64,000 nt of DNA, from assembly GCA_040767805.1 (NCBI GenBank), contig JAXGNU010000006.1:61621-125620 (forward strand), given 5' to 3'. Below are positions 38,420-50,569 of the stretch, one piece after another. A model generated the notes under the pieces. It saw only the letters and a list, made by a program, of their open reading frames with translations, made no database searches and was not told the origin of the DNA. This DNA comes from Thermovirgaceae bacterium (lineage in GTDB: Bacteria; Synergistota; Synergistia; Synergistales; Thermovirgaceae). Each line of letters opens with the position of its first letter. Position 1 is the stretch's first letter. The translations under genes were made by a program, and so were the position numbers.

Positions 38420-39409
38420 TTGAAAAAATTTGCCGAAAAAATCGACCTGGCTGTCCTTCCCACACCGATACACCCCGCCGGCAGGCTTTCCTCCCTGCTC
38501 GGGAGCGGGAAAGTGCTGCTGAAAAGGGACGACTTGACCGGCATCGCCCTTTCGGGGAACAAGGTGAGGAAGCTGGAATACTGCGCCGCCGACGCCCTTG
38601 CCCGCGGAGCCGACTTGATCATAACCTGCGGAGGACCCCAGTCAAACCACGCAAGGGCCACCGCGGCCGTGGCGGCCAAACTCGGCCTGGGGTGCCACCT
38701 GGTCCTCAACGGGAGCCCCGGCGCGCCCCCCGACGGCAACCTGTTCCTGGATCTCCTCTTCGGCGCCAGGGTGACCTTCGCACCCGTCCCCGACCTCAGG
38801 GATCAGGACGAGGCCATGGAAGAGGTCGCCGGGGAGTACCGCTCCCGGGGACTGAGGCCTTACACGATACCCCTGGGCGCGTCCGACGCGCTGGGATCAC
38901 TGGGTTACGTAGACGCCATGGGGGAGATCGCCGAACAGGTCGGCCGGTCGGGTCCGGCCCCGGACCGGATCGTCTTCTCCTGCGGCTCCGGCGGGACCCT
39001 TGCGGGGATCGTGGCCGGATGCCTTGTCCACGGGCTGGACTGCAAGGTGACGGCCATGAGCGTGGCCTTCCCCGGATCCTGGCTCGACGGAAAGGTAGCG
39101 GAAGTCTTTTCCGACCTCCGGGAAAGGTTCATCCCCGGCCTGCCCGATCACCGCGGCAAGTACGAAGTCGTCGACGGGTACATCGGCGAGGGCTATGGGA
39201 AGGCCTCCCCCGATCTTATCGACTTCATCAAGGAGGCGGCTTCCCTCGAGGCTGTCCTTTTGGACCCGACCTACACGGGGAAAGCCCTGTTCGGGCTGAA
39301 AAAGGAGATCGAGAGGGGCGGCATCAGCGCTGACGAACGGATCCTTTTCATCCACACCGGCGGGGTCTTCGGCCTGTTCCCCTTCAGGGACAGGTTCCGC
39401 ATGGAATGA
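38420..39409 (+). CDS. D-cysteine desulfhydrase/ACC deaminase family protein
   Basis: KRDDLTG..SGNKVRKLE, QSNHAR, LDPTYTGKA, HTGG. Confidence 0.92.
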   Translation: MKKFAEKIDLAVLPTPIHPAGRLSSLLGSGKVLLKRDDLTGIALSGNKVRKLEYCAADALARGADLIITCGGPQSNHARATAAVAAKLGLGCHLVLNGSPGAPPDGNLFLDLLFGARVTFAPVPDLRDQDEAMEEVAGEYRSRGLRPYTIPLGASDALGSLGYVDAMGEIAEQVGRSGPAPDRIVFSCGSGGTLAGIVAGCLVHGLDCKVTAMSVAFPGSWLDGKVAEVFSDLRERFIPGLPDHRGKYEVVDGYIGEGYGKASPDLIDFIKEAASLEAVLLDPTYTGKALFGLKKEIERGGISADERILFIHTGGVFGLFPFRDRFRME

Positions 39410-39528: not shown

Positions 39529-40329
39529 TTACAGGGCCAGCGGGACCACGGCCTTGGGCTCGATGACCCTGAAGGAGAAGGATTCGGCCATGAAGAGCTG
39601 GACCTTGTCGCCCGTGGAGCACTCGAAGCCGATGGAAAAATCCTGTCCCAGGGTGAGCTCGAAGTCGCCTCCCCTGGCGGAGACCAGGAAGCCGCCTTCC
39701 AGTTCCGGCGCGAGGATGATCCCGCCGTCGAAAAGGGAGGTGATCCTCTTCCTGAGGGGGTAACCCTCGCCGGCGACATCGACGGCCTTCCAGAGCTGCG
39801 GCCCGGCGACGAGGGTGTAGGGTCCCTCGATGGAACTCTTCTGGAAGAACACGAGCCCCTCGGAGACCCCGGCCATGATGCTCCTCGGATTTTCAATGGT
39901 GACGGGGATCTGGTGGTCCTCCCCCGCCTGGGCCAGCCCGACGATGCAGCCGGGCTCAAAACCGTTGTAGAGGGCGTTTTCTTCGAAGGAAGCGATCTTT
40001 TCAGCGGCCCTTATCAGGGAGTCCAGTTCGAGGTCCTTGACCCCCCGGGCCACGTTATCGAGCTCCCAGGTGTCCATCTCGAAGAAGGAGCGGGTCTCCA
40101 CGAGGGGCTGTACCACGTGAACCCCCCAGCGCACTTCCTCCCTGCCCTCGCTCGCCGAGACATCGAGCCTGCCCGTGGAGACCACGGCGTGGTCCCACCC
40201 GAAGGGCCCCAGCACGTCCACGAACTTCCTGCCGGAAAGCCTGCTCTTCAGGACTTTGATCGCCTGTTCGTCTATTTCCTGCCAGGCGGCATCGCTTATG
40301 GGGGATATGGAACGCTTCAGGATGTCCAT
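39529..40329 (-). CDS. Family 1 encapsulin shell protein
   Basis: MDILKR..SPI, GRKFVDVLGPFG, GGDFELTLGQDFSIG. Confidence 0.95.
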   Translation of the reverse strand: MDILKRSISPISDAAWQEIDEQAIKVLKSRLSGRKFVDVLGPFGWDHAVVSTGRLDVSASEGREEVRWGVHVVQPLVETRSFFEMDTWELDNVARGVKDLELDSLIRAAEKIASFEENALYNGFEPGCIVGLAQAGEDHQIPVTIENPRSIMAGVSEGLVFFQKSSIEGPYTLVAGPQLWKAVDVAGEGYPLRKRITSLFDGGIILAPELEGGFLVSARGGDFELTLGQDFSIGFECSTGDKVQLFMAESFSFRVIEPKAVVPLAL

Positions 40330-40720: not shown

Positions 40721-41024
40721 TCTCGTATCCTCCTTTCGGGATCCAGGTTGTAAGGGGGTCCTCGGCCGGGCCCCCGTCTTTCACCGGGTAACATGGTACC
40801 ATCACGGCCCCGGCGGCACAACAGCCGCTTGGAACCCGCAAACCTGGGGGCAGGGCCTTGAATGGAGCGTTCGGGCGCCTCACCGGGAAGGACTCCCCTC
40901 ACCCTTTACGCTTCACCCAACGGCATCCCGCACCGGCGGCCCCGACCTTCATCTTCGCCGCACCCGCAACGGGGTGGGTTTCCTGTTATCATGCTGCTGT
41001 ATCCCGCGATGGAAGGTGAGAAGA

Positions 41025-42125
41025 ATGAAGTGGAAAGAGAAAATGCCGGCGCCCGTGAGGGACAAGACCTTCGCCGAGTACGGTTCTTCCAGGGAAGAGA
41101 GGCCCGTCCTGGTGGACTGCGCCCTGGGGACCAACCCGCTGGGCTCCCCTCCCTGGGCGAAGGAGTACATCAAGTCAGGGAGCCTTCCGGACCCGGGCGG
41201 CTACCCCGGCGACGACCTACCCCTGCGGAAAGCCCTGTCCGACTCCTGGAACGGCGCCTTTTTCCCCGATGAGATCGTCACCGGCACGGGCTCCATCGGC
41301 CTGATCATAAGCCTGGCGGGGGCCTTTTGCGCACCGGGAGCCACGGTCCTGGGCATCGCGCCCCAGTTCCCCGACGGGCCCATGCACTTCCAGTTCGCCG
41401 GGGCGTCCTACCGGTACCTGCCGCTCACACCCCCGGAGTTCGACCTGGATATTTCCCGCCTCCTGGGTGAGATGACCGGCGATGAATCCCTGGTGTATGT
41501 AGACCGCCCCCACAACCCCACGGGGCAGGTCCCTCCCCTGGCCGAGATGGCCCTGCTGGCCGAGGAGTGCCAAAAAGGGGGATCGCTCCTGGTCATCGAC
41601 GAGGCCTACGGCGATTTCCTCCCGCCCGGGGAGTCGGCCCTCAACCTGGCCTCGCCCTCGGTGGTGGTCCTCCGTTCCTTCTCCAAGGGCCGCGGCCTGG
41701 CCGGGCTGCGCGCCGGCTACTGCGTGATCCGCGACGAAGAGGCCAGGAAGTACCTGCGAAAGGTGGCGCCACCCTTCTCGGTCGGCTCCCTGGCGATGGA
41801 GATGGCCAGGGCGTCCCTTCTCGACGCCGATTATGTCGCCCGCTCCAGGGAGATCGTGAGGGAGGTCAAGGCCAGGGTCCTCCAGGTCCTGGAAAGGACC
41901 GGGGGCATCACCGTGGCCGAGACGGACCCGGAAGTGCCCATCCTCCTGGCCACCTGGGTAGAGGGCCCGTTGGACCTCTACGAGGCCCTGATGGAACAGG
42001 GCATCAGGACCGAGCCGGGAACCTGCTTTTCGGGCCTCGGCCCAGAGAGCGTCCGGCTAAGGGTCCCGGCCCCCGGAGAGCTGGAGACTTTTGAAAGACT
42101 CTGGAAGAGGGCCTTTGAAGAATAA
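41025..42125 (+). CDS. Class I/II PLP aminotransferase (HisC-like)
   Basis: PHNPTG, IDEAY, LRSFSK..GLAGLRAGY. Confidence 0.9.
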   Translation: MKWKEKMPAPVRDKTFAEYGSSREERPVLVDCALGTNPLGSPPWAKEYIKSGSLPDPGGYPGDDLPLRKALSDSWNGAFFPDEIVTGTGSIGLIISLAGAFCAPGATVLGIAPQFPDGPMHFQFAGASYRYLPLTPPEFDLDISRLLGEMTGDESLVYVDRPHNPTGQVPPLAEMALLAEECQKGGSLLVIDEAYGDFLPPGESALNLASPSVVVLRSFSKGRGLAGLRAGYCVIRDEEARKYLRKVAPPFSVGSLAMEMARASLLDADYVARSREIVREVKARVLQVLERTGGITVAETDPEVPILLATWVEGPLDLYEALMEQGIRTEPGTCFSGLGPESVRLRVPAPGELETFERLWKRAFEE

Positions 42126-42150: not shown

Positions 42151-42383
42151 TTGACAAGGGCAGGCCGCTGGTATAGACTCCCATAGATACTTCGTTTTTT
42201 AATAATCGATCGCCTCGGAGGGAGGGTGACCCGTGCGAAGAATGAATGACTTTTTCGGCTGCTATTTTTACGGCTATTACTTTTACTTCGCCTTGGGGTC
42301 CCCCTCCTGGCGCGGTTGAGCCGTACTCTTCCGCAACGAACCGGGAAAAAGGGACCCCTAAAAAAGGGGTCCCTTTCTTTTTT
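42151..42383 (+). promoter_or_regulatory. Leader cassette 1: promoter plus Tyr/Phe attenuator
   Basis: TTGACA-N17-TAGACT; antiterminator 42295-42358; terminator 42348-42383. Confidence 0.85.
42233..42319 (+). CDS. Leader peptide, Tyr/Phe-rich, 28 aa
   Basis: MRRMNDFFGCYFYGYYFYFALGSPSWRG; GGAGGG RBS. Confidence 0.85.
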   Translation: MRRMNDFFGCYFYGYYFYFALGSPSWRG

Positions 42384-42491
42384 GGGGAGGTGGTGCCAGG
42401 AGAAGGCCAGGAACGAAAGCGCCGGCGGGCATTAAAGGGCCGCCCTGTAACGGGGCGGGCAGACAACCAGACACAGGAGGTGTCGAACGAA

Positions 42492-43634
42492 ATGAGCGAC
42501 CCCGTTGTGAACCGGGGTTTCTTCAGCAAGTTCATGGGCTCTTCCTTCTACAAGAAGTTCATCCTTCCCGGCCTTATTTCCCAGTCCGTCGTCATCGCCG
42601 GGGGTTACGGCACGGGCCGTGAACTCGTCGAGTACTTCGGTAACTTCGGCAGCCTCGGCGGCATCCTGGGCATGGCGCTGGTGACCACGGTCCTGTGGGC
42701 CATCGTCTACGCCGTGAGTTTCGAATTCGCCCGGACCTTCAAGGTCTACGACTACCGCAGCTTTTTCAAGGAGCTCATCGGGCCCGGCTGGATGCTCTAC
42801 GAGGTCTGCTACATAATCCTCCTCCTCATCATCCTCGGCGTGGTCGGCGCCACTTCGGGGAGCGTCTTCAAGCAGGCCTTCGGGCTGCCGCCCCTGGTGG
42901 GGGCCGCCCTCTTCCTGGCGGGCGTCGTCACGCTGACCTTCTTCGGCAGCTACGTCATCGAGGTCGCCCTCTCGTGGTGGTCCTTTGTCCTCTACGCCGT
43001 CTTCCTGCTCTTCCTCTTGGTGGGGCTCTCCAAGGTGGGGGGACAGATAAGCGCGAACCTGGCTTCCGGGGACATCCGTGAAGGCTGGGCCCTGGGAGGG
43101 TTCAAGTACGCCTTCTACAACCTCGCTACCCTTTCGGCCGTCCTTTTCGCACTCCGCTCCATCGAGACCAGGAAGGAAGCCTTCATATCGGGGGCGATGG
43201 CGTCGATCCTAACGATCCTCCCGGGCTTCTTCCTCTACCTAGTCCTGATGGGCTTCTACCCCGGCATACTCGAGGTGGAACTGCCGACTTACACCATCCT
43301 GTCCCAGATCGCTCCCTGGCTGCTGCCGATCTTCCTGGTGGTCCTCTTCGGGACGATGATCGAGACGGCCGCCGGGTTCATCCACTCCGTCAACGAGAGG
43401 CTCAACTCTTGGATGGTGGACCGCAAGGGCAAGGAGCTCTCCAACGCCGGCCGCGGCCTTGTCGGCGGAGCGATGGCCCTCATCGGTCTCGGCGTCGCCT
43501 CCTTCGGCCTCATCGGCCTCATCGCCAGGGGCTACGGGACCATCAGCTGGGCCTTCTTCCTCTTCCACGGCGTGGCCCTCTTCACGATCGGCCTGTACAA
43601 GATGAACAAGAAGAAGCCCGGGAGCGCCGCCTGA
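42492..43634 (+). CDS. YkvI-like amino-acid transporter (paralog A)
   Basis: SVVIAGGYGTGRELVEYF; about 10 TM. Confidence 0.85.
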   Translation: MSDPVVNRGFFSKFMGSSFYKKFILPGLISQSVVIAGGYGTGRELVEYFGNFGSLGGILGMALVTTVLWAIVYAVSFEFARTFKVYDYRSFFKELIGPGWMLYEVCYIILLLIILGVVGATSGSVFKQAFGLPPLVGAALFLAGVVTLTFFGSYVIEVALSWWSFVLYAVFLLFLLVGLSKVGGQISANLASGDIREGWALGGFKYAFYNLATLSAVLFALRSIETRKEAFISGAMASILTILPGFFLYLVLMGFYPGILEVELPTYTILSQIAPWLLPIFLVVLFGTMIETAAGFIHSVNERLNSWMVDRKGKELSNAGRGLVGGAMALIGLGVASFGLIGLIARGYGTISWAFFLFHGVALFTIGLYKMNKKKPGSAA

Positions 43635-43766: not shown

Positions 43767-43996
43767 TTGACAAGACAGGGGCATTAGTATAGTCTTCCCA
43801 AAACGTCAAGTCTTTCATAATGCACATTTTTAAAAGGGAGGGAGACCGATGGGCGTGGAGAAGGGCTGCTTTGGCCGGCTTATGAGCATTATTATCCTCC
43901 TTTCCGCCTTGGGGTCCCCCTCCTGGCGCGGTTGAGCTGTACTCTTCCGCAGCGAACCGGGATAAGGGGACCCCAAAAGGGGTCCCCTTATTTTTT
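43767..43996 (+). promoter_or_regulatory. Leader cassette 2: promoter plus Ile/Leu attenuator
   Basis: TTGACA-N17-TAGTCT; same scaffold; terminator 43962-43996. Confidence 0.85.
43849..43935 (+). CDS. Leader peptide, Ile/Leu-rich, 28 aa
   Basis: MGVEKGCFGRLMSIIILLSALGSPSWRG; GGAGGG RBS. Confidence 0.85.
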   Translation: MGVEKGCFGRLMSIIILLSALGSPSWRG

Positions 43997-44100
43997 GGGG
44001 GTGATGACCAGGAAGAAGCGGGATGGCCGAGGACTGGAGTGTAGGGAGAATTGTCCTTTGTCTGGAAGGGGCAGAGGGCGAAGAAAAGGAGGGAGTACTT

Positions 44101-44424
44101 TTGGAGAAACGGGAGTATTACAGCAGGGATTACGATTTCGCCGAGATCGAGATTGACCCGAGGTTCCTTCAATGCCGGAAGGAGATGATCATTTCCTTCT
44201 CAACCTGGCTGGCCTTTACCGCTATTTCCATTGCGGTGGCCTATAGCCTGGGGAAAGGCCCCGTGGAAAAGTATAAGTACGTCCTGGGACTCCCGCAATG
44301 GTGGTTCGCCGTAATAGTCGTCTCCGTGGTCTTTACGTTCATCGTCATTTTCCTTTCCCTTTTCGTTTTCCAGGACATGGAACTGTCCGATACCGCCGGG
44401 ACCGGCGGGGAGAAAAAAGGGTAA
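44101..44424 (+). CDS. YhdT/DUF997-like small membrane protein
   Basis: DPRF.QC.KE, GLPQWW, FQDMEL; 2 TM; precedes PanF-like gene. Confidence 0.82.
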   Translation: MEKREYYSRDYDFAEIEIDPRFLQCRKEMIISFSTWLAFTAISIAVAYSLGKGPVEKYKYVLGLPQWWFAVIVVSVVFTFIVIFLSLFVFQDMELSDTAGTGGEKKG

Positions 44425-44454
44425 AACCCTTTCCGCAGGAAGAGGTGACATGGC

Positions 44455-45957
44455 ATGGAATGGGAGTTATCTTCAGCAACCCGTACGGTGATCCTCATAA
44501 CCTTCATCGTTTATTCGATAGCCCTTCTGGTCGTCGGTTTTTATTCAAAGCGGAGGATGGACAAGACCGCCCTGGACAAGTTCGTGGAAGAGTTCTATAC
44601 CGGCGGGCGAGGCATGGGGGCCCTGGTCATCGCCCTCATGATCGCGGCGGGGTTATGCAGCGCCGGTACTTTTCTCGGGGGCCCCGGCCTGGGGTACAGC
44701 GTAGGTTTGACGTGGGTCATGGTGCTTTTCGCCCAGAATTTTATGAATTTCTATATCCTCGGCGAGATCGGGAAAAAAGTGGGCATCGTGGCCCGCCGGA
44801 TAAACGCCCAGTCCTACCTTGATCTTTTCGTCTACCGGTACAACCACAACAAGATGGTGGGGCTGATCGGCGTCGCAGGCATCGTGATCTTCCTGGGCAG
44901 TTATGTCGTGGCGCAGTTCGTCGGCGGCGCCCGCCTCTTCGAGTCAATGACGGGACAGCCCTACTGGCTCGGGCTCACTATCTTCGCCCTGGTGGTGCTG
45001 TTCTACGCGGCCTTCGGGGGCATAAGGGGCGTTTCAGCGGCGATCGTGATCCAGGGGCTCGTTATGACCGCCGCGGTGCTGGCGCTCTTCATCGGGGGGC
45101 TCCGGTTCCTCCTCCCCCTGGAATCGTCGGTGAGAAGCATCGCGGAAATGAATCCGGCGCTGGTAACCCCCTGGACCTGGGCGCCCGGCTACCAGTTCTC
45201 CATGTGGGTGGTTTTCGGGCTCGTGATGATCGGTCTGCCCCACGGAGCCATGGGGTGCCTCGTCTACAAGGACACGAAGGCCATGCACCGGGCCATCGTG
45301 ATCGGCACCATCTTCGTGGTCCTTTGGACCTTCGCCCTGGTCTGGATGGGGCACATGACGAAGGCCGTCTTCCCGAACCTCGCCGTGCCGGACCACGCCA
45401 TCCCCACGCTGGCAATGAGGGTTTTGCCACCCTGGCTGGCGGGCGTCACCCTGGCGGGTGTGGCCGGAGCGATACAGTCGACCATCGGGGCGATGGTCAT
45501 CGTCATCAGTTCGACCCTCGTGAAGGACGCCTACCAGGCCTATATCAACCCCAAGGCTGAACCAGCCAAGCTGAAGAAGGTCACTACCTGGTCAACCGTG
45601 GCGATCTGCGTCGCGATCTTCCTCGGCGCCCTGTTCCCGCCGCACGCCCTGGAATGGATAGTGGTCTTCGCCGTCGGCGGGCTGGCCTCGGCTTTCTTCT
45701 GGCCGCTGATCCTCGGCCTTTACTGGATGAGGACCAACGAGTACGGGGCGGCCGCAGGGATGGCCGGCGGCATGGCGACCTACATCATCGGCGCTGGGAA
45801 GTATCTCCCCATCACTTTCGGGATGAACGCGATCGTGGTCTCGCTGGTGGTCTCCCTGGCCCTGACCGTCGGCATCAGCCTCATGACCCCGAAGACGCCG
45901 AAGGGGATCATCATGACCTGGTTTGGGAGGGAATACCCGAAAAAGGTACCGGCCTAA
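44455..45957 (+). CDS. Sodium:solute symporter (PanF-like)
   Basis: EFYTGGRGMG, SAGTFLGGPG, QFVGGARL. Confidence 0.9.
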   Translation: MEWELSSATRTVILITFIVYSIALLVVGFYSKRRMDKTALDKFVEEFYTGGRGMGALVIALMIAAGLCSAGTFLGGPGLGYSVGLTWVMVLFAQNFMNFYILGEIGKKVGIVARRINAQSYLDLFVYRYNHNKMVGLIGVAGIVIFLGSYVVAQFVGGARLFESMTGQPYWLGLTIFALVVLFYAAFGGIRGVSAAIVIQGLVMTAAVLALFIGGLRFLLPLESSVRSIAEMNPALVTPWTWAPGYQFSMWVVFGLVMIGLPHGAMGCLVYKDTKAMHRAIVIGTIFVVLWTFALVWMGHMTKAVFPNLAVPDHAIPTLAMRVLPPWLAGVTLAGVAGAIQSTIGAMVIVISSTLVKDAYQAYINPKAEPAKLKKVTTWSTVAICVAIFLGALFPPHALEWIVVFAVGGLASAFFWPLILGLYWMRTNEYGAAAGMAGGMATYIIGAGKYLPITFGMNAIVVSLVVSLALTVGISLMTPKTPKGIIMTWFGREYPKKVPA

Positions 45958-46010
45958 GCCGGACGGTGAAGCCATCGCCCGGGCCATTCAAGCAAGGAGG
46001 TTAGTCGTGA

Positions 46011-47612
46011 ATGTATGATCTGCTGGTGAAAAATGCGAAGTTGTACGACGGCTGCGGCGGCCCATGGTTCAAAGGGGACCTCGCGGCCAAGGACGGCAGG
46101 ATCGCCGCGATCGGGAGATTGAAGAACGCCGAGGGCCGCACCGTCATCGATGCCGAGGGGAAGGCCCTTTCGCCGGGCTTCATCGACGCCCATACTCATC
46201 TCGATTTCGTCTGCGCTTCGGTCAACAACGCGGCGAGCAAGGTCACCCAGGGGGTTACCACCGAGATCGCGGGCAACTGCGGGCTCTCGCTCATCCCGGT
46301 GAGGCCCGAGACCATCGAGGAGCTCAAGCGGTACCTGGCCCCCTTCATACCCCAGGACGTGAACCTTTCCTGGAAGTGGAGGTCCCTGGGGGACTGGTTC
46401 GACTGCGTCGATGAAAGGGGCAACTCGACCAACGTGGCCTCCCTGGTCGGACACGGGACCCTCCGGATCTACGCCATGGGTTTCGCCGACAGGAAGCCCA
46501 GCGGGCAAGAGATGGCCGAGATGAAGAGGGCCCTGGCCCAGACCATGGAAGAGGGCGCCCTGGGGCTTTCGACGGGGCTCATCTACCCGCCCGGGTGTTA
46601 CTCGGACACGGATGAACTTTGTGAACTATGCGAGGTCGTCGCTGAACACGGCGGTCTTTACGTGACCCACATGCGGAACGAGGGCCCCGAACTGCTGCAG
46701 TCCGTCGAGGAGGCCCTGGAGATCGGGAGGAGAAGCGGATGCCCGGTGCATATTTCCCATCACAAGTCATCGGGTAGGCAGAATTACGGGCTGGTGTCAC
46801 GATCGCTGCAGATGATGGAGGACGCCCGGGCGGAGGGGATCGACGTTACTTGCGATGTCTATCCCTACACGGCGGGGTCCACCCTCATAAGCAGCCTGCT
46901 CCCCAAGTGGGTCCACGAAGGCGGCGTGGGGCGCATGCTTGAGAGGCTGAAGGACCCCGCGTCCAGGCGGAGGATCGCCGACGAACTGGACCGGGTCATC
47001 CCGGGCTGGGAAAACCTGGCGAAGGGCTGCGGCTGGGAGAACATCCTCATCTGCTCCTGCGAGAAGGAACCGTCCTATGAAGGGAAGACCGTCACGGAGA
47101 TCGCCAACGGGAGAGGCACCTCACCGGAGGAGGCACTCTTCGACGTGATCCTGGAGACCGAGGGCAAGGCCACCATCGCGCTCTTCATGATGGACGAGAA
47201 GGATTGCTCGACGGTCCTCGCCCACCCGCTCTCCATGGTGGGCTCCGACGGGTTCGCCAGTTCTTTCAGCGGGGTCCTTTCCAAGGGCAAGCCCCACCCC
47301 CGTTCCTTTGGAACCTTCCCCCGCGTCCTGGGCAAGTACGTCAGGGAAGAGGGCCTCATGTCCCTGGAAAGGGCCGTCTGGAAAATGACGGGCTTCGCGG
47401 CCCAGCGGTTCGGCCTTAAGGACCGGGGTTTCCTGAGGGAAGGGATGGCCGCCGACTTGGTCGTTTTCGACCCCCTCGAGATCATCGACAACGCGACCTA
47501 CAAGGAGCCCCGTCAACAGGCCGAGGGTATCGATTACGTGATCCTGGGCGGGGAGGTCGTCGTAGACCACAAGGTGTATAACGGGAAAACCCTCGGAAGA
47601 TCCCTGAGGTGA
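46011..47612 (+). CDS. N-acyl-D-amino-acid deacylase (D-aminoacylase)
   Basis: PGFIDAHTH, GNCG, THMRNE, ISHHK, GSDG, HPRSFGTFPR. Confidence 0.92.
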   Translation: MYDLLVKNAKLYDGCGGPWFKGDLAAKDGRIAAIGRLKNAEGRTVIDAEGKALSPGFIDAHTHLDFVCASVNNAASKVTQGVTTEIAGNCGLSLIPVRPETIEELKRYLAPFIPQDVNLSWKWRSLGDWFDCVDERGNSTNVASLVGHGTLRIYAMGFADRKPSGQEMAEMKRALAQTMEEGALGLSTGLIYPPGCYSDTDELCELCEVVAEHGGLYVTHMRNEGPELLQSVEEALEIGRRSGCPVHISHHKSSGRQNYGLVSRSLQMMEDARAEGIDVTCDVYPYTAGSTLISSLLPKWVHEGGVGRMLERLKDPASRRRIADELDRVIPGWENLAKGCGWENILICSCEKEPSYEGKTVTEIANGRGTSPEEALFDVILETEGKATIALFMMDEKDCSTVLAHPLSMVGSDGFASSFSGVLSKGKPHPRSFGTFPRVLGKYVREEGLMSLERAVWKMTGFAAQRFGLKDRGFLREGMAADLVVFDPLEIIDNATYKEPRQQAEGIDYVILGGEVVVDHKVYNGKTLGRSLR

Positions 47613-47669: not shown

Positions 47670-47900
47670 TTGACAAGGGTTCGACGCTGGTATAAAGTGC
47701 GCTGAAGGCAACACATTTCATAATGCATATTTTCTAAAGGAGGGAACCCGGTGAGTGTAAAGAACGGCTCCTTCGGCCGACTTATAAACATTATTATTCT
47801 CCTTTCCGCCTTGGGGTTCCCCTCCTGGCGCGGTTGAGCCGTACTCTTCCGCAACAAACCGGGATAGAGGGACCCCTTAAAAGGGGTCCCTTTCTTTTTT
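47670..47900 (+). promoter_or_regulatory. Leader cassette 3: promoter plus Ile/Leu attenuator
   Basis: TTGACA-N17-TAAAGT; same scaffold; terminator 47866-47900. Confidence 0.85.
47751..47837 (+). CDS. Leader peptide, Ile/Leu-rich, 28 aa
   Basis: MSVKNGSFGRLINIIILLSALGFPSWRG; AAGGAGGG RBS. Confidence 0.85.
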   Translation: MSVKNGSFGRLINIIILLSALGFPSWRG

Positions 47901-48006: not shown

Positions 48007-49221
48007 ATGAGAGGTCAAGAAAGGGACCGCGGGTTTTTCAGCAAAATGATGGGTTCTTCCTTCTACAAGAAGTTCATCCTTCCCGGCCTTATATCCCAGT
48101 CCGTCGTCATCGCCGGGGGTTACGGTACGGGCCGTGAACTCGTCGAGTACTTCGGCAATTTCGGCAGCCTCGGGGGCATCCTGGGCATGGCCCTGGTGAC
48201 CACGACCCTGTGGGCCGTGGTCTACGCCGCCAGCTATGAATTCGCCAGGACCTTCAAGGTTTACGACTACCGGGGATTCTTCAAGGAACTTCTCGGGCCG
48301 GGCTGGATGCTCTACGAGGTGTGTTACCTCGTGCTCCTACTTATCGTCCTCGGCGTCGTCGGGGCCGCCTCGGGAAGCATCTTCAAGCAGGCCTTCGGGC
48401 TGCCGCCCCTGGTGGGGGCCGCCCTCTTCCTGGCGGGCGTCGTCACGCTGACCTTCTTCGGCAGCTACGTCATCGAGGTCGCCCTCTCGTGGTGGTCCTT
48501 TGTCCTCTACGCCGTCTTCCTGCTCTTCCTCTTCGTGGGGCTGGCCAAGGTGGGGGGCCAGATAAGCGCGAACCTGGCTTCCGGGGACATCCGGGAAGGC
48601 TGGGCCCTGGGAGGTTTCAAGTATGCCTTTTATAACCTGGGCACCCTCCCGGCCGTACTCTTCGCCCTCAATTACATCGAGACCAGGAGAGAGGCCATCA
48701 TCTCGGGTGTATTGACGTCGGTCCTGACGATCCTCCCCGGTTTCTTCCTCTACCTGGTCCTGATGGGCTTCTACCCCGGCATACTCGAGGCGGAACTGCC
48801 CGCGTACACCATATTGTCCCAGATAGCCCCCTGGCTGCTGCCGATCTTCCTGGTGGTCCTCTTCGGGACGATGATCGAGACGGCCGTCGGCTTCATCCAC
48901 GCCGTGAACGAACGGGTCAACTCCTGGATGGTGGACCGGAGGAACACGGAACTGACCAAGGCCAACCGCGGCGTCCTCGGGGGCGTCATGGGCCTGATCG
49001 GGCTCGGCGTGGCCTCCTTCGGCCTCATCGGCCTCATTGCCAAGGGCTACGGCACCATCAGCTGGGGCTTTTTCCTGCTCCACGGGGTGGGCCTCTTCAC
49101 GATAGGCCTGTACAAGATGAGCAAAAAGGGCGGGAAGGCGTCCGCCCGATCCCGCGGCGAGGGGAGGTTGTCCGCTGATGGATTGGAGATCCCTGGCCGG
49201 GTTGACCGACAGGAATATTGA
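48007..49221 (+). CDS. YkvI-like amino-acid transporter (paralog B)
   Basis: Close paralog of 42492-43634. Confidence 0.85.
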   Translation: MRGQERDRGFFSKMMGSSFYKKFILPGLISQSVVIAGGYGTGRELVEYFGNFGSLGGILGMALVTTTLWAVVYAASYEFARTFKVYDYRGFFKELLGPGWMLYEVCYLVLLLIVLGVVGAASGSIFKQAFGLPPLVGAALFLAGVVTLTFFGSYVIEVALSWWSFVLYAVFLLFLFVGLAKVGGQISANLASGDIREGWALGGFKYAFYNLGTLPAVLFALNYIETRREAIISGVLTSVLTILPGFFLYLVLMGFYPGILEAELPAYTILSQIAPWLLPIFLVVLFGTMIETAVGFIHAVNERVNSWMVDRRNTELTKANRGVLGGVMGLIGLGVASFGLIGLIAKGYGTISWGFFLLHGVGLFTIGLYKMSKKGGKASARSRGEGRLSADGLEIPGRVDRQEY

Positions 49222-50569
49222 AAAAAGCTGCGCCGTCATCGAAGGTGAAGAGAGGGTGATACCCGGGGCCGTGTCGATAAAGTACTTTCCCATGGCCATC
49301 GAAAAGGCCCGGGGCTCCCTCGTCTGGGACGCCGACGGGAACAGGTACATCGACTTCCTGACCAGCGCCGCCGTCTATAACGCGGGCCACTGTCACCCCG
49401 CGGTGGTCCAGGCCGTCAAGGAGCAAGTGGAACGGCTCCAGAATTACACGATGGTCTATTTCTACAACGACCGGCCGGTCAGGCTGGCCGAACTCCTTAT
49501 CTCCACCACCCCCGGGGATGTCCCTAAAAAGGCCGTCTTCGGCTTCTCCGGGTCCGACGGCGTCGACGCCGCCATAAGGGCCGCCCGCGCTTTCACCGGG
49601 AGGAGGAAGATCCTCAGCTTCAAGGGATCCTACCACGGCATGACCACGGCCGCCCTTTCGGTGACGGGCATCGTCAGCGACGAGACCAAGAAGGACGTCT
49701 GCCTCGACCCCCACGTGATCTTCGCCGAGTATCCCGATCCCTACCGCAACTCCTGGGGGATCGACGGCTATACCGATCCCGAAGCCCTTTCGGCCAAGGC
49801 GATGGAGTCCATCGCGGAGCTCCTCGAAAAACACCGGGGCGATGTGGCGGCCGTCCTGATCGAACCCGCCCAGGGTGACGGGGGGATGATCTTCCCCCCG
49901 GGGGAATTCATGGCCAGGCTCAGGGAGGTCACGGAAGGGGAAGGGATAGTGCTCATCGACGAGGAGGTCCAGACCGGAATGGGCCGCAGCGGGCGCTGGT
50001 GGGCCATCGAACACTTCGGCGTGGTCCCCGACCTCATCGTCACCGCCAAGGCGCTGGGCGGCGGGCTCCCCATTTCCGCCGTCGTGGGCAGAGCCGAGAT
50101 CCTCGACGCCGTCCCGTCACCGCTGTTCGCCTACACCCACGCCGGCCACGCCGTCAGTTGCGCTTCGGCGGAGGCGATGATCAAGGTCGTGCGGGACGAG
50201 GGGCTCGCCGCCGCCGCCGAGGAAAAGGGGGAGGTCCTTGCCGACTGGTTCAGGTCGAGGGCCGAGCGGTATCCCTTCATCGGGGACATCCGCCAGAAGG
50301 GGCTGCTTATGGGTGTCGAGGTGGTATCGGACAGGGAAAAGAAGACACCCGACAAGGCCATGGCAATGAAGATATCCTGGGCCGCCTGGGAGAGGGGCCT
50401 CATCCTGATCACCTTCGGAAAACACGGGAACGTGGTGCGGCTGGCCCCGCCGCTCAACATCCCCGACGAACTCCTCCAGGAAGCCCTGGGGATAATGGAT
50501 GCCTCCCTCGAGGACGCGGCGTCAGGAAACGTGCCCGCAGCCATCCTGCCGCTCCTCAAGGGCTGGTAG
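49178..50569 (+). CDS. Class III PLP enzyme, probable amino-acid racemase/Ile 2-epimerase
   Basis: SGSDG, SYHG, IEPAQGDGG, EEVQTGMGR, AKALGGG. Confidence 0.8.
   Translation: MDWRSLAGLTDRNIEKSCAVIEGEERVIPGAVSIKYFPMAIEKARGSLVWDADGNRYIDFLTSAAVYNAGHCHPAVVQAVKEQVERLQNYTMVYFYNDRPVRLAELLISTTPGDVPKKAVFGFSGSDGVDAAIRAARAFTGRRKILSFKGSYHGMTTAALSVTGIVSDETKKDVCLDPHVIFAEYPDPYRNSWGIDGYTDPEALSAKAMESIAELLEKHRGDVAAVLIEPAQGDGGMIFPPGEFMARLREVTEGEGIVLIDEEVQTGMGRSGRWWAIEHFGVVPDLIVTAKALGGGLPISAVVGRAEILDAVPSPLFAYTHAGHAVSCASAEAMIKVVRDEGLAAAAEEKGEVLADWFRSRAERYPFIGDIRQKGLLMGVEVVSDREKKTPDKAMAMKISWAAWERGLILITFGKHGNVVRLAPPLNIPDELLQEALGIMDASLEDAASGNVPAAILPLLKGW

Follow-up and report, generated by a model that had tools for sequence, protein, structure and literature searches.

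We describe a leader element, leader A, and the transporter gene behind it, transporter paralog A, in a 64,000-nucleotide (nt) stretch of the genome of a Thermovirgaceae bacterium (Synergistota; GenBank assembly GCA_040767805.1, contig JAXGNU010000006.1, positions 61,621 to 125,620), which is referred to here as the window and supplies all coordinates given without a contig. Leader A is a 28-codon open reading frame (ORF) in which 10 of 13 consecutive codons specify phenylalanine (Phe) or tyrosine (Tyr), and we conclude with considerable confidence that the element is a leader-peptide transcription attenuator. On the arrangement of its sequence, it seems rather likely that leader A is the sensor through which this attenuator would switch on transporter A at a shortage of Phe or Tyr, and that the transporter probably imports both amino acids. 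The mechanism is a textbook one; what is new is the attenuator family, the label that it provides for an orphan, racemase-linked transporter family, and a mixed sensor divided between duplicated copies.

Leader A and its alternative RNA folds

The leader and the gene behind it comprise the following features:

42151-42179, + strand: sigma-70-like promoter, TTGACA-17 nt-TAGACT, with 10 of 12 matches in a consensus scan
42219-42232, + strand: Shine-Dalgarno region of leader A (GGAGGGAGGG...), with GGAGGGAGGG 6 nt before the GTG at 42233
42233-42319, + strand: leader peptide ORF A, GTG start, 28 codons, UGA stop at 42317-42319
42251-42289, + strand: Phe/Tyr sensor run, codons 7-19 of leader A, reading F F G C Y F Y G Y Y F Y F
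42295-42310, + strand: region 2, the 5' arm of the antiterminator (GGGGUCCCCCUCCUGG), within leader codons 21-26, from nascent-RNA folds and alignment pair counts
42341-42358, + strand: region 3, the 3' arm of the antiterminator (CCGGGA...GGGACCCC), overlapping the 5' arm of the terminator
42348-42386, + strand: intrinsic terminator with a 12-bp GC-rich stem, a 5-nt loop and a CUUUUUU tail, from a scan and folding
42492-43634, + strand: transporter paralog A, 380 amino acids (aa), YkvI-family by the names of its homologues, predicted LeuT/APC fold, ATG behind AGGAGG

The terminator ends 105 nt before the ATG of the transporter gene. An initial annotation of this DNA had pointed to a leader packed with Tyr and Phe, and the count holds, with five codons of each among positions 7-19. 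When all 3,306,048 thirteen-codon windows in the six frames of the whole genome were scanned, this run was the sole one with at least 10 Phe/Tyr codons, and the next-best two, with nine, both overlap it. The binomial expectation for windows with at least 10 of 13 such codons is 4.5e-4 genome-wide, given a background in which Phe and Tyr make up 5.95% of the codons of 1080 long ORFs in a genome of 1,654,126 bases and 60.7% GC. Five other places in the genome reach 8 of 13, and none of them was leader-like on inspection. The further remark that many of these codons end in U is weakly borne out: half of the ten are TTT or TAT (P = 0.08), against shares of 22% for TTT and 29% for TAT in the long ORFs. 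This bias is stronger in the isoleucine (Ile) codons of the two sister leaders of the window, B and C; in leader C, three of four are ATT, compared with an ATT share of 10.7% genome-wide (P = 0.004).

The Phe/Tyr run is kept across three genomes of the genus (the window's own, G000, together with G002 and G003), while the N-terminal codons have diverged. Its sole change is a Tyr to Phe replacement in G002; in G003 the A-type leader lies at a contig end with the run unaltered. The arrangement of promoter, Shine-Dalgarno site and ORF is retained in 15 aligned leaders, and the TTGACA box also occurs at the aligned position of leaders B and C. That leader A is a chance open frame without function, for which its small size alone would speak, is so improbable as to be negligible: the run is unique among 3.3 million windows, and the idea is refuted by the conservation, across many genomes, of the leader together with its promoter, Shine-Dalgarno site, stop and terminator.

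Since the 3' arm of the antiterminator is also the 5' arm of the terminator, the two structures are mutually exclusive. In the antiterminator, GGGGUCCC (42295-42302) pairs with GGGACCCC (42351-42358) and UCCUGG (42305-42310) pairs with CCGGGA (42341-42346), with a small hairpin capping the top in the nascent-RNA folds. This structure is the fold of the nascent RNA as long as region 4 is still missing, at -35.4 kcal/mol in leader A, -41.9 in B and -32.9 in C. Across 15 related leaders, 88.9% of the alignment cells pair, compared with 43-60% when the partners are slid by 1-3 columns, and in two other Synergistota clades of different sequence the same pairing of the last leader codons with the terminator 5' arm is found. 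The minimum-energy fold of the full-length RNA pairs the leader's Shine-Dalgarno site with region 2, possibly as an anti-antiterminator; a tentative figure for this pairing is 76.7% of cells in the 15-sequence alignment.

The spacing of leader and folds is also that of an attenuator. Region 2 lies within codons 21-26 and the UGA at 42317 begins 7 nt past it, so a ribosome at the stop must cover region 2. Between sensor codons 7-16 and region 2 there are 15 nt or more, codons 17-19 being closer, and by this geometry a ribosome held at codons 7-16 would leave region 2 free. The features by which leader attenuators are recognized are thus all present: a ribosome-binding site with a start codon, a run of regulatory codons, a terminator, an antiterminator exclusive of it and a suitably placed stop.

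We infer from this arrangement a response to starvation that would proceed as follows. Transcription would begin some 40 nt ahead of the leader, whose 28-codon ORF a ribosome would translate. With Phe- and Tyr-charged transfer RNA (tRNA) plentiful, the ribosome would reach the UGA at 42317 and cover or melt region 2 (42295-42310); with region 2 masked, the terminator (42348-42386) would form and transcription would end before the transporter gene. If either charged tRNA were scarce, the ribosome would stall within the Phe/Tyr run (42251-42289), leaving region 2 free to pair with region 3 (42341-42358), which would block the terminator and allow read-through into the monocistronic gene at 42492-43634. 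Transporter A would then import Phe and Tyr, as L-forms and perhaps D-forms, with or without other hydrophobic substrates. A 996-nt contig from metatranscriptome X2, belonging to a relative about 96% identical, spans 42219-43190 across leader, terminator and gene; it fits a read-through transcript, though DNA carry-over remains possible. Four of the 22 runs listed (X1, X2, X3 and X5) were compared as assembled contigs, from which neither transcript levels nor transcript ends can be derived; a gap in coverage, such as that at 43775-43975 in the RNA runs, carries no information.

Several observations weigh against this account. The terminator form is the minimum-energy fold of the full-length RNA in every case, so the switch must be kinetic, as in classical systems, and nascent-transcript folds alone are informative on it. 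Changes on both sides are seen in just 2 of the 21 antiterminator pairs, shuffled alignments fail to set the antiterminator apart on covariation, and the support from other clades consists of folds of single sequences, as distinct from a formal test of covariation. Region 2 would be partly covered if the ribosome stalled at the final three codons of the sensor. The sensor of leader A is identical in DNA between G000 and G003, so copy A offers no synonymous changes that would prove selection on codon meaning.

Among enterobacterial leader-peptide attenuators are the Phe leaders of pheA and pheST and the leaders of leu, ilvGMEDA, his and trp. The general mechanism is summarised in PMC9413887. 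Leader A resembles the enterobacterial systems in its short ORF with regulatory codons, in its overlapping terminator and antiterminator, and in that the position of the ribosome would decide between them. It differs from them in belonging to the Synergistota, in joining two amino acids in one sensor (three in relatives), in apparently regulating a transporter rather than a biosynthetic operon, and in the anti-Shine-Dalgarno-like CCUCC of region 2, which can pair with the leader's own Shine-Dalgarno site. No description of a leader-peptide attenuator in Synergistota was found in the literature searched, which was mostly without subscription journals.

Sister leaders and the spread of the scaffold

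The 30 bases that end the leader A ORF recur in the window at 43906 (exactly) and at 47808 (with one mismatch), where none would be expected by chance, and belong to two further leaders, the second of which precedes a second copy of the transporter:

43849-43935, + strand: paralogous leader B, Ile/Leu sensor, own terminator ending at about 43997
47751-47837, + strand: paralogous leader C, Ile/Leu sensor, terminator ending at about 47900
48007-49221, + strand: transporter paralog C, 404 aa, 86% identical to paralog A

Leaders A, B and C share promoter, Shine-Dalgarno site and terminator, as well as the nine final codons and the 60 bases after them. Leaders B and C differ from A in the sensor, which is rich in Ile and leucine (Leu) instead of Phe and Tyr. 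In a protein tree, read without loci L018 and L025 (wrongly extracted ORFs with very long branches), transporters A and C are sister paralogs (Shimodaira-Hasegawa-like approximate likelihood-ratio test, SH-aLRT, 100) and are nested within a set of single-copy genes whose leaders are mixed. G000 and G002 have both paralogs, and G004, of the same genus, has one copy with a mixed leader. One mixed-sensor ancestor was therefore duplicated within the genus, as a unit of leader and transporter (and racemase, see below), and its sensor was afterwards divided, Phe/Tyr going to copy A and Ile/Leu to copy C. The pair shows a multi-amino-acid sensor divided between duplicates and offers a route to the residues that determine specificity.

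Leaders occur well beyond this genus. A filter requiring a hydrophobic ORF (8-45 aa) as well as a Shine-Dalgarno site identified one in 19 of the 33 Synergistota loci of the transporter family with upstream sequence, and all 19 are rich in Phe/Tyr plus Ile or in tryptophan (Trp)/Phe/Tyr. The same filter found no leader in the other 14 loci, nor upstream of 46 homologues from outside the Synergistota. The single-copy transporter genes of Thermovirgaceae carry mixed sensors of Phe, Tyr and Ile, sometimes with Leu; those of an Acetomicrobium-like clade are Tyr/Phe/Ile, and those of a third clade, which includes Aminobacteriaceae and Aminivibrio, are Trp/Phe/Tyr. Four scaffold-less Synergistota homologues (L023, L024, L026 and L036) have other small conserved upstream ORFs; the type found in L024 and L036 is 16-17 aa long with two or three Phe codons. 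ORFs of this sort may represent leaders of another kind.

A covariance model of the leader scaffold (R1) detected it in 65 of 121 sampled Synergistales genomes, with matches in all 18 other genomes of the window's family. No Rfam family reached its gathering score in the window or in eight related loci, the Phe, Leu, His, Thr and Trp leader models included. The scaffold adds a large leader-peptide attenuator family, outside Rfam, for Synergistota. A motif scan for T-boxes in 83 loci, made up of all 80 related ones and L001-L003, found none next to the transporter and two weak matches elsewhere. Within the window's own genome, R1 finds two further copies, on contigs C15 and C4, which are listed here with a copy from another genome:

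G000, C15:10390-10543, - strand: Leu-rich leader (with Ile, Val and Met) on the scaffold, preceding leuA-leuC-leuD-leuB
G000, C4:125548-125737, + strand: Ile/Leu/Val scaffold copy with a TTGACA-17-TATACT promoter and a terminator, about 310 nt before AddB-like and AddA/UvrD-like genes
G049, C14:86646-86810 (L120): Phe-only scaffold copy, with Phe at six of eight consecutive leader codons, preceding a family-3 solute-binding protein of the amino-acid ATP-binding cassette (ABC) type

Transporter specificity has reportedly been predicted from T-box specifier or attenuator codons by Vitreschak, Rodionov, Gelfand, Wels and colleagues. The same reasoning applies here: the amino acid given by the regulatory codon is the one at whose shortage the transporter is induced; no such codon-based prediction for this family or phylum was found in the literature searched, which left subscription journals mostly outside its coverage. 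The C15 leader appears to be a classical leu attenuator, matched by no Rfam model, and its place before leuACDB in the same genome validates internally the reading of leader codons as a label. A Leu-rich scaffold copy also precedes leuC in another genome, and the L120 leader probably marks a Phe-controlled ABC amino-acid importer. The initial annotation had gone one step further and taken the leader as a label of the substrate. Its codon logic is backed by the leuACDB copy, but the label need not name an exclusive substrate: the single-copy relatives carry mixed leaders, so the leader marks a starvation signal. A harder case for the codon label is the Ile/Leu/Val copy on C4. Four further genomes of the family have similar copies, 290-325 nt ahead of AddB-like genes, whose function the codons do not match, and the codon label is therefore not always a substrate label. 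Neither a convincing small gene nor an Rfam match was found in the gap between the C4 leader and the addB-like gene. Scaffold copies of this addBA-like kind in other genomes are at loci L112, L113, L121 and L125.

These addBA copies, which are at odds with an amino-acid logic, also bear on the idea that the Phe/Tyr run acts otherwise than as a sensor of tRNA charging, such as through a peptide that inserts into the membrane or causes arrest, or through a U-rich RNA to which a protein binds. The leaders do resemble signal peptides, with a basic N-terminus and a hydrophobic core, and the sensor is conserved as nucleotides in three genomes. Set against this, the C-terminal residues are unconserved between clades except where they encode region 2, the sensors vary widely as RNA yet keep in-frame hydrophobic or aromatic codons, and Leu-rich copies precede leu operons. 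The classical ilv and leu leaders of E. coli are, moreover, equally hydrophobic. We regard a role of this kind as highly improbable and continue to read leader A as a sensor of Phe and Tyr supply.

Transporter A and its probable substrates

The transporter gene starts at the ATG at 42492; a 462-aa frame at 42246-43634 was discarded as an open-frame artefact. Its description as YkvI-like comes from the labels 'YkvI family membrane protein' and 'uncharacterized membrane protein YkvI', under which NCBI and JGI list homologues of 52-74% identity; no Pfam model (even at E 10) and no NCBIfam model matches the protein. Among 8000 candidates scored, 1489 are homologues at E ≤0.001, and the closest come from Synergistota/Thermovirgaceae metagenome bins. 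The YkvI family (COG3949-type) presumably falls within the APC superfamily in TCDB. No transport experiment on a YkvI-family protein was found in full-text literature, as judged by titles and abstract openings and with subscription journals mostly outside the coverage. For this widespread orphan family the leader offers a concrete substrate hypothesis.

An AlphaFold2 model based on an 18-sequence alignment (mean predicted local distance difference test score, pLDDT, 75.9; predicted template-modelling score, pTM, 0.77) predicts a secondary carrier of the LeuT type. In a Foldseek search, 27 solved chains matched at E ≤0.001, all of them LeuT-fold carriers, with query-normalised template-modelling scores (TM-scores) of up to 0.63; they include the hydrophobic-amino-acid transporter MhsT (with Val, Leu or 4-F-Phe bound), AgcS, LAT1, ApcT and CodB. 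The model resembles MhsT and other LeuT-fold transporters (TM-scores of 0.51-0.63 for 4us3, 6yu6, 6cse, 8j8m and 3gia) in its broken transmembrane helices 1 and 6 (TM1 and TM6), and differs from them in an identity of 11-17% and in having about 10-11 helices in 380 residues. By analogy with LeuT-fold carriers, the helix breaks in the model, at residues 38-41 (G-Y-G-T) and 205-212, would be the unwound stretches of TM1 and TM6 at which the substrate site is formed.

From the leader codons and the gene context together we infer an importer, and we think it reasonably probable that Phe and Tyr are among its substrates. Specificity for these two amino acids is more doubtful. Facts about both the organism and the protein also weigh against the account as a whole: import is not the sole source of Phe and Tyr, given that genes for chorismate synthase, prephenate dehydratase and prephenate dehydrogenase are present in the genome, and A, being 86% identical to C, may still carry the broad substrate range of the ancestor. 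The genome also encodes dihydroxy-acid dehydratase, and the organism is probably not an obligate auxotroph.

The comparison of the two paralogs cuts both ways. At positions fixed in seven outgroups, 19 derived substitutions fall in A compared with 14 in C; four of those in A (G212A, P215S, N222R and Y223S) cluster at or just past the predicted TM6 break, and the branch of A is the longer (0.13 + 0.013, or 0.14) compared with that of C (0.06 + 0.028, or 0.09). These changes and the longer branch are compatible with a shift in specificity. The TM1 region, including its glycine-rich break, is the same in A and C, which, with the 86% identity and the single-copy relatives that run one transporter under a mixed Phe/Tyr/Ile leader, argues for a different reading of a real attenuator: regulation alone would have diverged, A would keep a broad hydrophobic range (Phe, Tyr, Ile, Leu, Met and Val), and the leader would be a label of demand. 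The substitutions and branch length in A stand against that reading, which we hold to be a serious but minority possibility. If, on the other hand, the duplication split specificity as well as sensor, A and C would form a natural pair at 86% identity in which G212A, P215S, N222R and Y223S would decide between aromatic and branched-chain selectivity. The C-terminus of paralog C is 24 residues longer than that of A.

Gene neighbourhood and possible links to D-amino-acid use

The genes around the three leaders are as follows:

40974-42125, + strand: HisC/CobD-like class I/II aminotransferase (Pfam PF00155, E 4e-39), upstream of the leader A promoter and a separate transcription unit
44023-44424, + strand: DUF997 small membrane protein, behind leader B
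44455-45957, + strand: PanF-like sodium:solute symporter, behind leader B
46011-47612, + strand: D-aminoacylase homologue, behind leader B (solved relative 1m7j, E 2.5e-100)
49178-50569, + strand: class-III aminotransferase-type gene (Pfam PF00202), a close homologue of a solved broad-specificity amino-acid racemase

The HisC-like aminotransferase that had been reported just upstream of the leader is indeed there, and it is a conserved partner of the transporter family, lying beside the transporter in both Synergistota and Clostridia loci. Its scores against the NCBIfam hisC and CobD equivalog models are below the cut-offs, and its best solved relative is 4r2n, a 'putative phenylalanine aminotransferase' (E 1e-23). 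In Thermovirgaceae the conserved cluster consists of the HisC-like aminotransferase, the leader, the transporter and the class-III 'aminotransferase'. An order of HisC-like gene, class-III enzyme and transporter recurs in 10 Clostridia loci, and 16 loci, among which are the six with Trp/Phe/Tyr leaders, have the transporter followed by a convergent HisC-like gene without the class-III enzyme.

Within the window, the start of the racemase homologue overlaps the end of paralog C by 44 bases (49178-49221), and the two are read as co-transcribed. By its position, leader B would control the operon at 44023-47612 (DUF997 protein, PanF-like symporter and D-aminoacylase homologue), a set of genes that points to the import of N-acyl-D-amino acids, and their deacylation, when Ile and Leu are short. 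In the G003 counterpart of this operon (L096), the leader codons are Met, Phe, Met, Ile, Ile and Leu.

A comparable association is described in a study of Pyrococcus horikoshii (PMC13628549; FEBS J 2026), in which the BAR cluster PH0137-PH0138-PH0140 places a racemase behind a putative YkvI-family transporter, PH0137. The racemase acts on ten amino acids, Met, Leu, Ile and Phe among them, and it is repressed together with PH0137 by FFRP when L-Ile is present and induced by D-allo-Ile (PMC13628549). The two systems are alike in setting a putative YkvI-family transporter beside a broad-specificity racemase, with expression up when an L-amino acid (Ile) is short, so the module and its logic of switching on at L-amino-acid shortage recur with a different sensor. 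They differ in that P. horikoshii is an archaeon for which no aromatic-specific copy is described. The gene context in this way ties the transporter to a D-amino-acid utilisation module of Pyrococcus. The suggestion in the initial annotation that D-forms might be imported gains indirect support from the racemase homologue with C, the D-aminoacylase homologue under leader B and the co-regulation in P. horikoshii. Paralog A itself is a point on the other side, being monocistronic, in a transcription unit of its own without a racemase.

The same neighbours could also be taken to mean that, behind a real attenuator, the cargo is a precursor converted by neighbouring enzymes, whether aromatic 2-oxo acids, D-isomers only, N-acyl-D-amino acids or small peptides. 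The conserved HisC-like aminotransferase beside the transporter would fit this, as would the racemase and D-aminoacylase homologues in the same island under sister leaders and, in P. horikoshii, the proposal of PH0137 as a D-amino-acid importer (PMC13628549). The aminotransferase, however, lies upstream of the leader promoter and hence outside attenuator control, paralog A is monocistronic, and its closest folds are amino-acid carriers; we consider a precursor as the cargo unlikely. Import of Phe and Tyr themselves remains the preferred reading of transporter A.

For the YkvI family as a whole we put forward a broader proposal only tentatively: that its members are importers of hydrophobic and aromatic amino acids, D-forms included, that they form, with the broad-specificity racemase and the HisC-like aminotransferase, a salvage module turned on when charged tRNA is short, that leader codons give their substrate range, and that A and C have split both sensor and specificity. 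If this were true, leader codons across the Synergistales would read out what each transporter carries: Trp, Phe and Tyr in one clade, but Phe, Tyr and Ile in a second.

Upstream of the island, the window also encodes a pyridoxal-phosphate enzyme of the D-cysteine desulfhydrase / D-cysteate sulfo-lyase family (38420-39409, + strand) and an encapsulin (Linocin_M18) shell protein (39529-40329, - strand).

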